Below, one piece after another: positions 15,997 through 21,307 of a stretch of 64,000 bases of DNA. This DNA is from Chromatiales bacterium. Lineage in GTDB: Bacteria; Pseudomonadota; Gammaproteobacteria; Steroidobacterales; GCA-2729495. Location of the stretch: the NCBI GenBank assembly GCA_016789845.1, contig JAEUQA010000076.1, forward strand, positions 1,780 through 65,779, read 5' to 3'. The position numbers were made by a program, and so were the translations under genes. The first letter of the stretch is position 1. Each line of letters starts with the position of its first letter. The notes under the pieces are model-generated. The model was given only the letters and a program-made list of their open reading frames with translations, did not search any database and had not been told where the DNA came from.

Positions 15997-17079
15997 ATGG
16001 CACGAGCGCAACCTTCCCCTGGCAATGCCTTCGCGGGCGACCTGCTCGAGCGCGGCGCCGCCGGCTACGGCGGCTTTGCCGCGTCGCTGATGCTGGACCG
16101 GGATCCGGGCCTCCGCGAACGCCAGGGGCCGAACGCCCTGGCGGCCTGGCGCACGCACCTGACCCAGCGCGTGCTCGAACTTGCCGCGGCCGTGCAGGCC
16201 GGGGACTCCCGGCTGTTCCTCGGCCGGGTGACCTGGTCCCGGAAGGCCTTCCGGGCCCGGGGCCAGGACGACCAGGACATCCGCCACAGCATCCAGGCCC
16301 TGCATGACGTGCTCGTCGAGCGGCTGCCGAAGCCGGCGCTTCCCTTGCCGATCGAGTACGTCGATCTGGCGCTGAAGCTGCTCGCCTCGCCGGCCCCGTC
16401 GCCGGACCCGTCAGAGCTGGATCCGAAGCGCCCGTCGGACCGCCTGGCCCTCGAGTACCTGCAGAAGATCCTGGAGGGCAACGTGGCGGACGCCATTGCG
16501 GCGGTCACCACCGCGGCACTGAATGGCCTTGGCCCGCGCGCGGCCTACACCGACGTGCTGCTGCCCGCCCAGCGGGAGGTGGGCCGGCTCTGGCACGCCG
16601 GCGAGCTCAGCATCGCCGAAGAGCACATGGTGACTTCGGCCACCCAGCGCACCATGGCCGTGGTGGCCAGCCAGGCTCCCCGGCAGCCCGCCAACGGGCG
16701 CACGGTCGTGGTCGCCGCCGTGTCGGGCAACGTGCACGACGTGGGCCTGCGGGCGCTGGCCGACATGTACCAGCTGGCCGGCTGGCGCGTGATCTTCGTC
16801 GGCGCCGACGTGCCGATGCAGGACCTGCCCACCATGCTCGCGTTCTTCGAGGCTGACCTGCTGATGCTGGGCGCCACGCTGGCCACCCACGTGCCCCGCG
16901 TCGAGCAGGCCATCCGCTCCATCCGCGAGCGCTGCGAGCGGCCGGTGCGCGTGGTGGTGGGCGGCGCTGCCTTCGATGAGGCATCGGACCTGTGGACCCG
17001 GGTCGGCAGTGACGGCTACGCGCCGACCATCGACCAGGCGCTGGACCTGGGTGCGCGGCTGGTGGGGCTGCAGCAGTAG
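15997..17079 (+). CDS. Cobalamin (B12)-binding domain protein with a CarH-type Wx9EH cap motif; no DNA-binding domain seen
   Basis: REVGRLWHAGELSIAEEHMVT (W-x9-E-H) followed by VVVAAVSGNVHDVGLRALADMYQLAGWRVIFVGADVP (B12 Rossmann with lower-ligand His). Confidence 0.8.
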   Translation: MARAQPSPGNAFAGDLLERGAAGYGGFAASLMLDRDPGLRERQGPNALAAWRTHLTQRVLELAAAVQAGDSRLFLGRVTWSRKAFRARGQDDQDIRHSIQALHDVLVERLPKPALPLPIEYVDLALKLLASPAPSPDPSELDPKRPSDRLALEYLQKILEGNVADAIAAVTTAALNGLGPRAAYTDVLLPAQREVGRLWHAGELSIAEEHMVTSATQRTMAVVASQAPRQPANGRTVVVAAVSGNVHDVGLRALADMYQLAGWRVIFVGADVPMQDLPTMLAFFEADLLMLGATLATHVPRVEQAIRSIRERCERPVRVVVGGAAFDEASDLWTRVGSDGYAPTIDQALDLGARLVGLQQ

Positions 17080-17087
17080 GCCGCGAC

Positions 17088-17399
17088 ATGCGCCGGCTGC
17101 CCGCCTCGCTACTGATCCTGCTCGCGGCTGTCGCGGGCGCGGCAGACCAGAGCGATGCGGAGCGCCAGGCCGAGCTGGACCAGCGCTGCGAAGCCGCCCG
17201 GGACGAAAAGCTGGCGCCGATCCGGGAGGAGGTCTACGCCGAGTGCCTCGAGGGCCGGAAGGGGGACGAAGCCTACTGCCGGCGCTACGCGGACGGGTAT
17301 AACGGCGAGCGCATCGGCGGGTCCCCGCGCTTCTACGAATTGCCCGAGTGCGAGGCAGCGTTCCGGTTTCGTAACCGAAACCGAAAGCCCGGCACCTAG
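17088..17399 (+). CDS. Small secreted Cys-containing hypothetical protein
   Basis: Signal peptide MRRLPASLLILLAAVAGAA; 4 Cys; 103 aa; no family recognised. Confidence 0.5.
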   Translation: MRRLPASLLILLAAVAGAADQSDAERQAELDQRCEAARDEKLAPIREEVYAECLEGRKGDEAYCRRYADGYNGERIGGSPRFYELPECEAAFRFRNRNRKPGT

Positions 17400-19045
17400 G
17401 TCGCACCCCACTTCGCCAGCGTCGCGCCGTAGAGGCGATCCACTTCCGCCAGCGCGTCCGGCGCGCCCTTCTCGAGCAGTGCCCGGTTGGTGGCCGGGAA
17501 GTCGGGCCGTCCGCCTTCTTCCGGCCACTGGATCGTGGCATCGATCACGATCTTGCTGGTGCGTCCCTGCACCGGCTGGCTCGGGTCGGTGATGATGCCC
17601 GTCACGTCCTTGATGATCTCGGCGGCGGGGGACGGCTGCCAGCGGGAGCCGACGGCGAACAGCACCTGCGTGCGGTCCATCACGTCCACGTCCTTGTCGA
17701 CGACGATCACCACTTTCGCGATCGGGTTCCGCTCCGCCACGACGCGGCCGGCCTTCATGCCCTCGCCCGGCGCCTTCTTGTCGATGCTGAGGATCGCCAC
17801 GCCCATCAGGTCCTGGGGCTGGTAGATCTCGATCAGGCCGGGCACGGCCCGGCGCAGGAAGTGGTCGTACAGCGCGTCCTGGGGCGACGTCACCATGCCC
17901 CGCTGCATGCCCGTGAAGGCGTTCATGATCCAGGGATCCCGGCGATGGGTCACCGCGGTGACGTTGAGGAAGAAGTTGTCCTCCTTGGCGGGGCCCATGT
18001 AGCCGAACATCTCGCCGAAGGGGCCCTCGGGCAGGCCCTTGCCCTGCAGCGGGACCTCGCCCTCGATGATCATCTCGGCGTGCGCCGGCACCAGCAGGTC
18101 GTTCGTCTCCGACTTCACGACCTCCACCGGCTTGCCACGGAAGCCACCCGCCAGCGCGAGCTCGTCGACGGGCTTGTCGCCGAAGCGGTTGGCCACCCGG
18201 GTGCCGCTGATGAACCACACCACCGGGTCCTGGCCCAGGGCGATCGAGACCTTGGCCGTGGCCTCGCCGCGCTTCCTCGCGGCCATCAGCATCTTCCAGC
18301 CGGTCTGGTTCGGCTCCGGATTCAGGCCGAGGAGCCGCGGGCCCTTGAGCTGGCAGCGGTAGGTGCCGAAGTTACCCCCCATCACCGGATCGTTCATGAA
18401 CACCGAGCCCGTGTTGACATAGCGGCCGGCGTCCACGGGATTGGTCTGCACGAAGGCAAACTTCGTCAGGTCGATGTCGTCGCCCCGCAGGACCACCTGC
18501 TTGCAGAGGGCCTTCTCCCGGGCAATCGTCACCGGCGGAATCTGCGGGTAGCTGCCGTTGTTCTTCTTCAGCATCTCCGCCAGGTATGCCTTGGCATTGC
18601 GGTAGCTGGCGGGACCGTTGCCCGGGACCACCGCCTGGCCGAAGACGATGGCGTCGGTGTGCAGGTTGGCCTGGAGCAGGCCCACCAGTGGGCCCTGCAC
18701 CCACTTGCCGCCGATCTTCACCCGGTCGAAGTACAGGGCCGGCACGCCGAAGTAGGTGTAGCGGTCGTTGGCGCGGAACACGAGGCCCGTCGCCTGGTAC
18801 GCGTCCTGGTCCACCTCGGGGATGCGCAGGAGAAGGCCGTGGGCGTCCAGCGCGGCCACGTAGTCCCGCAGGGTGTCGAAGGGCGCCCGGGGTGCGCTGG
18901 CCGGGCTGCGGGCGCCGGCGGTCAGTCCGCCGGCTGCCGTGGCACCACCGGCTGCGCACCCGGCAGTGGCCAGGGTGGCCGAAAGCGCGGCCAGGGTGGA
19001 ACCGGCAGCCAGGATTTCGCGACGGGACAGCAGGGAATCGGACAT
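17396..19045 (-). CDS. UbiD-family (prFMN-dependent) decarboxylase homolog with a twin-arginine signal peptide
   Basis: N-terminus MSDSLLSRREILAAGSTLAALSATLATAGC (Tat motif SRRxIL). The body has UbiD-like blocks, e.g. LPEGPFGEMFGYMGP. 549 aa. Confidence 0.8.
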   Translation of the reverse strand: MSDSLLSRREILAAGSTLAALSATLATAGCAAGGATAAGGLTAGARSPASAPRAPFDTLRDYVAALDAHGLLLRIPEVDQDAYQATGLVFRANDRYTYFGVPALYFDRVKIGGKWVQGPLVGLLQANLHTDAIVFGQAVVPGNGPASYRNAKAYLAEMLKKNNGSYPQIPPVTIAREKALCKQVVLRGDDIDLTKFAFVQTNPVDAGRYVNTGSVFMNDPVMGGNFGTYRCQLKGPRLLGLNPEPNQTGWKMLMAARKRGEATAKVSIALGQDPVVWFISGTRVANRFGDKPVDELALAGGFRGKPVEVVKSETNDLLVPAHAEMIIEGEVPLQGKGLPEGPFGEMFGYMGPAKEDNFFLNVTAVTHRRDPWIMNAFTGMQRGMVTSPQDALYDHFLRRAVPGLIEIYQPQDLMGVAILSIDKKAPGEGMKAGRVVAERNPIAKVVIVVDKDVDVMDRTQVLFAVGSRWQPSPAAEIIKDVTGIITDPSQPVQGRTSKIVIDATIQWPEEGGRPDFPATNRALLEKGAPDALAEVDRLYGATLAKWGAT

Positions 19046-19087
19046 GGGGAACGCTCCAGCGGCGGGGTGCTTGCGATAGTGCGGATA

Positions 19088-19444
19088 CTAGCCGGCGGCC
19101 GCCCGCACGGCGCGACGCGCCCGCCAGCGCAGTGCGAAAATTGCCCCGGTCACCACCACGAGGGCAGCCAGCCAGCCGCCGGTCCGGCGCTCGATGACCT
19201 GGAAGACGACGCCGTGGGCGACGGTCAGGACGAGGGCGGTCGTCGAGATGCCCTGCAGCTGTTTCCAGCGGGCCGGTCCCAGCCGGCGCAGGCTCCAGTT
19301 GTTCGACAGCAGCAGGAGGAGCAGGAACAGGATCCCCACGAGATACCCGCCCAGGATGCTGGAGTTCCCGAGCCAGTCGGGCCAGCCGGGCAACGGCGGC
19401 CCGTCCGGCCCGGTGAGGTACCGGTTGAAGTAGGCGGGCTGCAT
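19088..19444 (-). CDS. Ferric-reductase-like (MsrQ/YedZ-type) heme-b membrane protein; minimal ORF, the true 5' end is probably near 19720
   Basis: The ATG-delimited ORF gives 118 aa with 3 TM helices. The same frame stays open upstream to 19837 and encodes ...LLLLATTGAAAAAWFAG...LLTAWLCVGLLVAALALGP...RRDLGIWAGLTGLAHL (3 more TMs with a conserved His), but contains no ATG/GTG/TTG. Confidence 0.6.
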   Translation of the reverse strand: MQPAYFNRYLTGPDGPPLPGWPDWLGNSSILGGYLVGILFLLLLLLSNNWSLRRLGPARWKQLQGISTTALVLTVAHGVVFQVIERRTGGWLAALVVVTGAIFALRWRARRAVRAAAG

Positions 19445-19715
19445 GACCTCGCCCGTTGCCGCTGCCAGGTGCGCGAGGCCGGTTAACCCTGCCCAGATGC
19501 CGAGGTCCCGGCGCAGCAGGCTGTTCAGCGTCGGCCGCCCCGTGCGCAGCGCCTCCAGGGGGCCCAGCGCCAGTGCCGCGACGAGCAGCCCGACGCACAG
19601 CCAGGCCGTCAGCAGGCTCAGGCGGTCGAGGGCGGTGGCCGGACTGCCGGCGAACCAGGCCGCTGCCGCCGCGCCCGTCGTAGCGAGCAGCAGCAGGGCG
19701 TGGCGCGGCTGCCGC

Positions 19716-20450
19716 CTACTGAAGCGGTTGCCCAGGGTCCTGGCCGGGCATCCGGCCCCGGGTGTGCAGCTGGTCGATGCGTTGCGTGACGACGCTCGCC
19801 CAGCGCCGGGCCACCCGGCGCACCTCGCTCCAGGCCTCTACCGAGGTCACGCGGGATACGTTGGAGTTGCCAATATCCACGGGGTCCGCGGCCCGTCGAT
19901 CCACCGCCCGCGCCAGCATCTCGCCGCTCTGGGAGTCCTGCAACTCCAGCACCAGCGTGGCCTCGCCCACCTCGTCCAGGAAGATCTCGTTGCGGCCCGG
20001 GATCTCCGGTGGCACCTTCGAGACGATATCGACCAGGGATGCCCGGACCAGCAGCACGTCCGGCCCGGGCGCTGTCGTGAGCGTCAGGTGGCGGCTCTTC
20101 GCGAGTTCTTCCCGGAAGACGTCGGTGACCATGTCCACCAGCCGCTTCTGGTCGGCGGCGCTCAGCGGGAATTCCCGGTCCTGGGAGGTGTACCGGGTCG
20201 TGCCCGCGGTCGGGCGGACGGCCCGGAACTGCACTTCGATGGGCAGCAGGAGCATCTGCTCGTAGCTGCTGAGGTTGATGTCCGGCTTGATCCAGGCTTC
20301 CTTCAGGCCCGAGTCCCGCACGGGGACCATGCCGTCCCAGGTGGGGCCGTCGGGCACGATGACGGGATTGGCCGGCGTGCAGGCCACGATGGCGAGCCCG
20401 GCAGCCAGCAGGGTGCCGGTGGTGAGGGGGCGTAGTTTGCTGGCCGTCAT
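19716..20450 (-). CDS. DUF3313-family lipoprotein
   Basis: MTASKLRPLTTGTLLAAGLAIVAC lipobox; start chosen at ATG 20450 (the track ORF begins 54 nt upstream). Confidence 0.7.
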   Translation of the reverse strand: MTASKLRPLTTGTLLAAGLAIVACTPANPVIVPDGPTWDGMVPVRDSGLKEAWIKPDINLSSYEQMLLLPIEVQFRAVRPTAGTTRYTSQDREFPLSAADQKRLVDMVTDVFREELAKSRHLTLTTAPGPDVLLVRASLVDIVSKVPPEIPGRNEIFLDEVGEATLVLELQDSQSGEMLARAVDRRAADPVDIGNSNVSRVTSVEAWSEVRRVARRWASVVTQRIDQLHTRGRMPGQDPGQPLQ

Positions 20451-20527
20451 GCAGTAGTCCCGCCGCCTCTGCGGTTCGGTCCTCATCTTATACTCTTTGG
20501 GCATGCTGGCCTATCGTTCATGTCGCG

Positions 20528-21307
20528 ATGCATGACCCCCTGCGCAGACTGGTTCGAGGAGTCCTGGCGCGCCTGGGTGCCAGGCCCCATTCCCGCTTCT
20601 CGGGCGCGTATCCCGACTGGGAGACGGCGCGCCGGGACTCGGATGGCTGGGACTCGCCCGCCGTCCTGGACAAGGTCAGGGCGGGTGTCCTGGATGTCCT
20701 GCAGGGGAGGAGCGCCTACGAAAGGGACGGCACGTCGTTTGCCGCCTTGCCCAGGGCGGACACCCTGCGACGGCTGCTCTCCCGGCTGGCGACAGCCGAT
20801 TCATGGATCATTGATTTTGGCGGCGGACTGGGCGGAACCTGGATCAACAACCGGGACATCCTGCCCCCGGGGGTGAGGTTCACCGTCATCGAGCAGCCCT
20901 CGTTCTGCGAGGCGGGGCGCAGGATCGCGGCGGACCACGGCCTTCCAGTGCAGTTTTCCACTTCGGTGGAGGCGCTCGGGGAGCAAGGCAAGCCGGACGT
21001 CGTGATCTTCAGCGGGGTGCTGAGCTACGTCGAGGACTGGGAGAGGATCGTCGCTGCCGTCCTCCGGCTGGAGCCGGCGAACATCGTTGTCGACCGGCAG
21101 ATCCTGACGGCGGAGGACGGTTACGTCTGCACCCAGCGCGTTACCGGCTACTACGCCCGGCCGGTTTCCTACCCGCTGCGTGTCTTCAACGAGGAGCGCT
21201 TCGTCGCGGCGTTTGCCGGCTATGGGATCCGGCAACGCTGGGTTTCCGACTTTGATCCCCCGGACCACCTGGGCTTTCACTTCGTGAAGGCCGCCAATGG
21301 ACGCTAG
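20528..21307 (+). CDS. TIGR04325-type class I SAM-dependent methyltransferase
   Basis: FSGAYPDWETARRDSDGWDSPAVL N-terminus and IIDFGGGLGG SAM motif. Confidence 0.65.
   Translation: MHDPLRRLVRGVLARLGARPHSRFSGAYPDWETARRDSDGWDSPAVLDKVRAGVLDVLQGRSAYERDGTSFAALPRADTLRRLLSRLATADSWIIDFGGGLGGTWINNRDILPPGVRFTVIEQPSFCEAGRRIAADHGLPVQFSTSVEALGEQGKPDVVIFSGVLSYVEDWERIVAAVLRLEPANIVVDRQILTAEDGYVCTQRVTGYYARPVSYPLRVFNEERFVAAFAGYGIRQRWVSDFDPPDHLGFHFVKAANGR

Follow-up and report, generated by a model that had tools for sequence, protein, structure and literature searches.

A putatively Tat-exported clade of UbiD-family decarboxylase homologues in an uncultured gammaproteobacterial order

Gene content of the locus

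The window analysed in this study is a 64,000-nucleotide stretch of contig JAEUQA010000076.1 (positions 1,780 to 65,779 of the forward strand; contig C41 in our numbering) from the assembly GCA_016789845.1 of a Chromatiales bacterium of the gammaproteobacterial order Steroidobacterales, and coordinates given without a contig label refer to it. Our subject is a gene in this window that encodes a 549-residue homologue of the UbiD family, the decarboxylases that use prenylated flavin mononucleotide (prFMN), and that begins with a candidate signal for the twin-arginine translocation (Tat) pathway. A previous reading made from the letters of the DNA (the sequence-only reading) had described a UbiD homologue with a twin-arginine start, a six-helix ferric reductase-like gene directly upstream on the same strand and, before that, a DUF3313 lipoprotein, and had joined the three in a periplasmic redox system resembling MsrPQ. 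All three genes were found on the reverse strand in this order, and the UbiD homologue and its twin-arginine start were confirmed (Table 1). Neither a sigma-70-like promoter nor an intrinsic terminator was detected in a scan of 16900-20800. A search of sequencing runs listed no RNA run, and the best DNA run contained 0.28 of the words.

Table 1. Features of the UbiD locus, in window coordinates
Feature	Position	Strand	Details and basis
UbiD-family gene of the Tat-signal clade, 549 aa	17396..19045	-	Open reading frame (ORF), Pfam UbiD and UbiD_C, AlphaFold2 (AF2) model
Predicted signal peptide, residues 1-30	18956..19045	-	R8-R9 19019-19024; lipobox-like TAGC, Cys30 18956-18958; translation, conservation
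Putative active-site residues	18011..18373	-	N225 (18371-18373), R230 (18356-18358), T248 (18302-18304), E295 (18161-18163), E340 and E345 (18011-18028); translation, conservation
YedZ/ferric reductase domain (FRD)-type six-helix membrane protein, ~202 aa, probable single haem b	19088..19696	-	PF01794, His pair, model
DUF3313 lipoprotein	19716..20450	-	ATG start at 20450, in-frame ATG upstream at 20504; PF11769
Small secreted Cys-containing protein, 103 aa	17088..17399	+	ORF; convergent with the UbiD gene, 4-nt end overlap

Family, fold and catalytic residues

The 549-residue protein matched PF01977 (UbiD) with 166.9 bits (E 4.3e-49, cut-off 23.3) and PF20696 (UbiD_C) with 67.7 bits (E 1.3e-18, cut-off 24.2), and its nearest solved relatives by sequence match to the PDB were HmfF (5.5e-38), E. 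coli UbiD (1.4e-34), PhdA and VdcC. An AF2 model built on a 60-sequence alignment reached a mean predicted local distance difference test score (pLDDT) of 89.8 and was confident from about residue 52. This model superposed over its full length on HmfF 6h6v (target-normalised template modelling score, TMt, 0.87), E. coli UbiD and VdcC, and TMt values against HmfF, UbiD, VdcC and Fdc1 ranged from 0.75 to 0.88. Judged by these profiles and the predicted fold, the protein is a UbiD-family (prFMN) decarboxylase homologue. The ubiquinone-pathway UbiD was tried as a more precise identity and rejected, as the protein reached 123.6 bits with the NF008175 equivalog model, whose cut-off is 788.

The best solved relative in both sequence and fold is HmfF, the 2,5-furandicarboxylate decarboxylase of Pelotomaculum thermopropionicum (PDB 6h6v, 6h6x), which arranges its UbiD domains in the same order as the window protein and whose N..R and E-x4-E residues align with those of the latter. 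HmfF differs, however, in that its PDB chain has 448 residues, aligns in sequence only from query residue 169 and carries no signal-type N-terminal extension. As identity to HmfF is only ~29%, the HmfF substrate is not transferable to the window UbiD. The E. coli 4-hydroxy-3-polyprenylbenzoate decarboxylase UbiD (PDB 5m1c/d/e, 2idb) shares the fold (TMt 0.82-0.87), and its N175, R180, E241, E285 and D290 align with N225, R230, E295, E340 and E345, respectively. Its frame, in contrast, opens directly with the N-terminal domain, where the window protein has ~50 residues of putative signal and linker. The phenolic acid decarboxylase VdcC/ShVdcCD (PDB 7ae4, 7ae5, 7ae7) is likewise similar in fold and gives a full-length sequence match (query residues 59-511, 4.8e-29), but it shows no signal peptide in the alignment, and while its NCBIfam model was the second-best match of the window UbiD, the 186 bits obtained lie far under the cut-off of 650.

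PMC5818171 describes R-Xn-E-X4-(E/D) as the ionic-network motif of the UbiD family, represented by R173/E277/E282 in A. niger Fdc1. For PA0254, PMC3650080 reports a metal site formed by His188 and Glu229, with Ser165 in the second sphere; there, Glu229 is invariant, whereas His188 is replaced by Gly in bona fide UbiD and is thus a feature of the PA0254/Fdc subclass. In the window UbiD the motif is made up of R230, E340 and E345, while N225, five residues before the Arg, and E295 take the positions of Ser165 and Glu229 of PA0254. We take the metal ligands of Fdc1 to be N168, H191 and E233, a numbering whose spacing was checked against PMC3650080. Among the 154 sequences of the Tat clade (labelled as described below), N225, R230, E295 and E340 were each found in 153 and E345 in all 154, so that the prFMN/metal ligands and the E-R-E network, whose conservation the sequence-only reading had named as a check, are kept in 153-154 of the 154, with the exception of the His ligand position.

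This position, His188 in PA0254, corresponds to T248 by ungapped spacing (Arg+18), a mapping that does not come from superposition. Across the Tat clade it is occupied by T, A or S, and the signal-less sister paralogues have His there; the adjoining residue, Q247, is kept in 145 of the 154 Tat-clade sequences. An altered metal site of this kind could be taken as a sign that the clade has given up prFMN decarboxylase chemistry and acts as a binding protein or with another cofactor, and the same alternative would draw on the score of the window UbiD against TIGR00148, 217.5 bits, which falls under the cut-off of 244.85. However, PMC3650080 gives Gly at this position in E. coli UbiD, which thus also lacks the His and of which a prFMN-reconstituted structure, 5m1d, exists. 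T248 is therefore not disqualifying, though the metal site differs. In addition, the remaining catalytic and ligand residues are near-invariant, which would be unexpected for a non-catalytic homologue. We consider a loss of the chemistry improbable, and the comparison supports the window UbiD as a catalytically equipped member of its family.

The N-terminal signal

Tat signals carry a motif near the N-terminus with a consensus resembling S/T-R-R-x-F-L-K. Residues 7-30 of the window UbiD, SRREILAAGSTLAALSATLATAGC, begin with S7-R8-R9-E-I-L, continue into an Ala/Gly/Ser/Thr-rich hydrophobic stretch and end in LATAG followed by Cys30; the AF2 model places a helix over residues 8-25 and a low-confidence linker over residues 25-42. 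Homologues were labelled as Tat-bearing when [RK]R was followed by at least 13 uncharged residues, and 154 of 187 aligned sequences received the label, leaving 33 unlabelled. The RR pair was present in all 154, a count to be read with the label's own demand for [RK]R, and the consensus of the signal in these sequences was [LV]-S-R-R-[ED]-[LFI]-L-A-A. A lipobox-like Cys occurred in 85 of them. Both R8 and R9 were invariant in a separate alignment of 60 sequences. Among the 120 best homologues (58-100% identity), 108 had the RR motif inside the first 45 residues; 11 of the other 12 are shorter entries (452-536 aa) that open at or near the mature domain, and in the twelfth (602 aa) the motif lies deeper in the sequence. 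The case for Tat is made because of the motif and its conservation, and by this motif the N-terminus of the window UbiD is a twin-arginine signal.

The properties of the hydrophobic stretch were compared with those of other signals in the same genome. In this small sample, its hydropathy was 1.70 in the window UbiD and 1.70-2.04 across the four Tat-bearing paralogues, and it was 1.24-2.17 in the classical Tat substrates of the genome (the Rieske protein, two multicopper oxidases and MsrP); two neighbouring Sec signals were more hydrophobic, at 2.39 and 2.71. Signals similar to that of UbiD were found on these four Tat cargoes and also on a molybdopterin dehydrogenase, and the genome encodes TatC (PF00902, 231.2 bits, contig C57).

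A protein with such an N-terminus could also leave the cytoplasm by the general secretory (Sec) route and be handled as a lipoprotein by the Lol system, or stay anchored in the membrane by its N-terminus, the RR pair being the charged start of a Sec signal. The lipobox-like Cys in 85 of the 154 sequences would suit this explanation, as would the behaviour of the hidden Markov models for Tat signals, which stay under threshold: neither the Pfam Tat-signal model nor TIGR01409 matched the window UbiD, and two of its paralogues scored 10.8 and 15.1 bits with TIGR01409 against a cut-off of 16.7. Short profiles of this kind pass over many true signals. A Sec signal, however, needs neither an invariant RR nor the conserved S-R-R-x-[LFI]-L around it, and the hydrophobic stretch is weak, as in the Tat substrates of the genome and unlike the neighbouring Sec signals. 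Moreover, cofactor-binding and oligomeric enzymes such as those of this family are established as typical Tat cargo. We therefore hold the Sec/Lol route or a simple membrane anchor to be unlikely.

It could further be envisaged that the N-terminal extension is a non-working signal and that the enzyme stays in the cytoplasm, as the signal-less sister paralogues of the same genome might suggest. The motif, the hydrophobic stretch and the cleavage or lipobox site are, however, conserved across a deep clade, while a non-functional extension would be expected to decay. Such decay is in fact seen in some members of the clade: the gene at locus L018 (4992-6532) is frameshifted and starts without a signal, and in the entries P0026 and P0036 the first residues remain and the hydrophobic stretch is missing. 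A cytoplasmic location thus seems very unlikely to us, and a twin-arginine signal remains the preferred reading of the N-terminus.

The genome contains further cofactor enzymes and other proteins with Tat-like signals, namely a 637-residue thiamine-diphosphate enzyme, two short-chain dehydrogenases (RR with lipobox), four DUF1838 proteins, an amidase and an amidohydrolase; the sites of these Tat-like cofactor enzymes are C17:28820-30733, C34:11798-13845 and contigs C12, C19, C25 and C71.

Phylogeny and distribution

A tree of 67 rows was inferred from core columns only with IQ-TREE in quick mode (LG+G4, outgroup rooting), after the short row L019 had been dropped. All Tat-bearing rows fell into one clade with a Shimodaira-Hasegawa-like approximate likelihood-ratio test (SH-aLRT) value of 100, comprising 48 Tat rows together with L018 and L027, both of which are broken genes. 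This clade is nested among signal-less lineages, including two paralogues from the same genome, and the Tat label requires at least three changes on the tree. The topology fits a signal that was gained once and occasionally lost. Among 1.84 billion representative proteins, 3746 relatives were found, with the signal confined to the few closest representative clusters, and general UbiDs at or below 40% identity showed no such signal.

The genome of the Chromatiales bacterium has eight UbiD-family genes: four with the signal, two signal-less sisters and two more distant ones. The four signal-bearing genes belong to four different subclades and comprise the window gene (C41), two genes on C35 and one on C87. 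A search for ubiX, one of the follow-ups proposed with the sequence-only reading, returned a single copy (TIGR00421, 237.5 bits, cut-off 108.9; C67:4057-4602). None of the eight UbiD-family genes reached the NF008175 cut-off of 788 bits, the best being C15:13264-14709 with 190.6 bits; since the genome is 95% complete, a canonical ubiD may have been missed by the assembly or have been replaced.

In a sample of 301 genomes of the order, searched at E <= 1e-120, a threshold that also admits signal-less sisters, the UbiD subfamily was matched in 72 genomes, including 41 of the 43 of the bacterium's own family. Matches were also found in 15 of the 20 genomes of a sister family (f22; G022, G039, G056 and others), which are 1.1-1.6 Mb in size and have one to four copies each, counted by similarity alone. 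The subfamily is thus kept even in genomes of ~1.4 Mb. Across the class, 401 genomes gave matches only in the source genome and in one other genome of its own family. On these counts, the putatively exported clade appears to be almost confined to one gammaproteobacterial order, and in most genomes of one family it is present in multiple copies.

The contexts of the paralogues were also recorded. One signal-less sister UbiD (C15:45939-47423; locus L100, C15:44851-48647) lies directly after a family III CoA-transferase and faces a convergent gene in which a CTP-dependent riboflavin kinase domain is fused to a HAD hydrolase, a context that links this sister to CoA-thioester substrates and flavin metabolism. 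At C35:72615-80395 (L098), two Tat-UbiD paralogues share a same-strand cluster with four other genes, which encode an Amidohydro_2 protein, a secreted metallo-beta-lactamase/alkyl-sulfatase-like protein, a 2H-phosphoesterase-like protein and a LOG/lysine-decarboxylase-like protein.

The proposed exported enzyme

Taken together, we favour the reading that the window UbiD belongs to a distinct clade of prFMN (de)carboxylases that are probably loaded with cofactor in the cytoplasm, exported by Tat and often anchored by lipid in the periplasm. The family, catalytic residues, signal motif, UbiX and TatC are read directly from the sequence, and from them we infer that the enzyme is exported, lipidated and loaded with cofactor, and what type of reaction it catalyses. 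The apo-enzyme would fold in the cytoplasm, where it would take up metal ions and prFMN from the single UbiX, and the folded enzyme would then be exported by Tat. Cys30 would be lipid-modified in the window protein, as would its counterpart in about half of the clade, and a flexible linker of ~25 residues would hold the catalytic domain to the membrane on the periplasmic side. There, the enzyme would act on an aromatic, heteroaromatic or unsaturated acid and (de)carboxylate it non-oxidatively.

Several of the observations described above weigh against this proposal, namely the substituted His position, the TIGR00148 score, the silent Tat-signal profiles and the loss of the signal in some members of the clade. 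To these must be added a Pfam scan of 88 neighbours of distant Tat-UbiD loci and 19 neighbours of the genome's own paralogues, in which no recurrent pathway that would name a substrate was found.

The neighbouring genes

The DUF3313 gene encodes a protein, MTASKLRPLTTGTLLAAGLAIVAC, whose lipoprotein signal ends in the lipobox AIVAC and which matched PF11769 with 57.3 bits (E 2.3e-15, cut-off 26.1). Some 19 nt separate it from the membrane-protein gene, which in turn lies 42 nt from the UbiD gene. The 103-residue protein encoded on the opposite strand had no match in Pfam or NCBIfam; it is present at 7 of 10 close orthologous loci and also at L062, a locus without UbiD. Further along (15997-17079, + strand) lies the gene for a 360-residue protein with C-terminal B12-binding_2 and B12-binding domains and an N-terminal stretch of ~150 residues to which no domain could be assigned. 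No catalytic domain is attached to it, and in several genomes its gene keeps a stable syntenic position beside the haem-b gene.

The frame of the membrane protein is open over 19088-19837 and, translated from ~19700, scored 27.9 bits with PF01794 (Ferric_reduct) against a cut-off of 28; in the whole-genome scan the score was 27.4 bits, and 28.4 with neighbours in frame. H76 and H161, located in helix 3 and helix 5, were invariant in 36 sequences of the protein, as were R63, D64, G66 and W68 of an RRD-GIW stretch. The AF2 model had a mean pLDDT of 92.7, and its best structural matches were the membrane domains of STEAP1/2/4 and NOX5 (query-normalised template modelling score, TMq, 0.57-0.63; Foldseek E 0.02-0.13). 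A search recovered 106 homologues of ~200 aa, some of them automatically named YedZ by the Joint Genome Institute (JGI). On these features we regard the product as a genuine YedZ/FRD-type protein. Canonical MsrQ was rejected as its identity: NCBIfam gave no match, and a separate MsrP/MsrQ pair, consisting of a canonical MsrP (PF00174, with a Tat signal) and its own 69-bit PF01794 partner, is present on contig C33.

The start of this gene required closer attention, as the first ATG, GTG or TTG is found only at 19444, in mid-protein, and would leave 118 residues; the same holds for the 93%-identical orthologue at L011. The half of the gene upstream of this codon (19444-19700) is conserved in orthologues, with a ratio of non-synonymous to synonymous polymorphism (pN/pS) of 0.17-0.51 vs 0.31-0.65 in the downstream half, and because of this conservation under purifying selection the N-terminal half is taken to be translated. 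A Leu-codon start is called at the matching point in some homologues, and the gene probably starts at CTG 19696. In the database entries P0308, P0324, P0341, P0344 and P0345, gene callers have shortened the protein to 118 residues.

Is the neighbourhood an MsrPQ-like redox operon?

The layout resembles MsrPQ (YedYZ) in that a gene for a ~200-residue FRD/YedZ-type membrane protein with a His pair adjoins one for a cofactor enzyme with a Tat signal. The two systems differ, however, in that MsrP is a molybdoenzyme, whereas UbiD is a flavoenzyme whose reactions belong to a non-redox class, and in that the window pair shows no consistent co-occurrence and its membrane component no NCBIfam match to MsrQ. 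In the reading at issue, the YedZ-like haem-b protein would serve the exported UbiD as MsrQ serves MsrP, acting as the electron link that joins prFMN to the quinone pool, for instance when prFMNH2 is oxidised to the active iminium form, with DUF3313 as an accessory. The tight spacing of three genes on one strand, the FRD fold and the invariant His pair of the membrane protein are all in keeping with this, as is the statement in PMC5818171 that oxidative maturation is needed to activate UbiD.

The conservation of the arrangement was assessed across related loci, for which gene calls came from a crude codon-usage caller that miscalled several starts. The three-gene neighbourhood, whose lack of conservation the sequence-only reading had itself named as grounds for refutation, is not conserved. 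Among 43 UbiD loci from reference genomes, the DUF3313 and haem-b genes occurred only among the ten closest (at least 76% identity) and at none of the 33 distant Tat-UbiD loci; DUF3313 orthologues in particular were found at 10 of the 43, all of them loci of close UbiD orthologues. Within this close group, which with the window comes to 11 orthologous loci, the haem-b gene is intact at 7, so that the layout does recur, but it is reduced to a remnant at two (L017, and L013, a locus identical to L107) and absent from two more (L018 and L019, where DUF3313 abuts UbiD), beside an otherwise conserved UbiD. Conversely, a search of the 301 genomes for the haem-b gene gave matches in 31, including 24 of 43 in the bacterium's own family and 11 of 16 in its own genus. 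Of 25 strong haem-b loci, five had an adjacent UbiD and 20 did not, and the neighbours at these 20 were heterogeneous: four showed the order CFA synthase/haem-b/B12-binding, two the order CFA synthase/DUF3313/haem-b, and 14 had unrelated contexts. A complex prediction with UbiD residues 55-549, the membrane protein and haem returned no verdict, with a score of 0.00 in two runs.

Other small cytochromes near Tat-UbiD genes give the idea of a redox partner some further support. At the C87 copy, b561, YceI, DLH and UbiD genes follow one another on one strand; at L048 the order YceI-DLH-UbiD was confirmed, with a 187-residue gene upstream of YceI lying outside the scan; and divergent b561 genes occur at L026, L032 and L033. 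By a post hoc count, two of the four Tat-UbiD genes of the genome lie within three genes of one of its seven such cytochrome genes. The b561 neighbours are nevertheless variable, and L044 has DLH-UbiD without b561 or YceI. We thus give the redox-partner explanation little credence for the window pair. The broader suggestion that small b-type cytochromes (YedZ/FRD here, b561 elsewhere) could be facultative periplasmic redox partners of exported UbiDs, coupling oxidative prFMN maturation or repair to the quinone pool, appears to us equally doubtful; if true, it would connect prFMN chemistry with the respiratory chain at a site outside the cytoplasm.

Instead, the block of DUF3313, haem-b, UbiD and small-protein genes looks like a variable insert between the CFA-synthase and B12-binding-domain genes, whose members come and go independently. 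By these comparisons, the haem-b protein and DUF3313 seem to belong to a locally variable block and not to be obligate partners of UbiD. Of the sequence-only reading, the part that survives is the putatively exported, catalytically equipped UbiD homologue, while the MsrPQ-like three-gene redox system is not supported, and an attractive "redox operon" interpretation of the neighbouring genes is thus corrected as unsupported.

Implications

To our knowledge, the characterised UbiD-family enzymes have all been handled as soluble intracellular proteins, with prFMN regarded as a cofactor of the cytoplasm. Full-text literature searches, whose coverage largely excluded subscription journals, found no paper on an exported UbiD. 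If the proposed export is true, the clade would represent a new kind of Tat cargo and could offer secretable (de)carboxylases for biocatalysis. It would also call for an explanation of how prFMN matures and stays active outside the cell, and would point to extracytoplasmic substrates, for instance aromatic, humic or furanic acids. In an uncultured order of gammaproteobacteria, prenylated-flavin (de)carboxylation would thereby be located in the periplasm.

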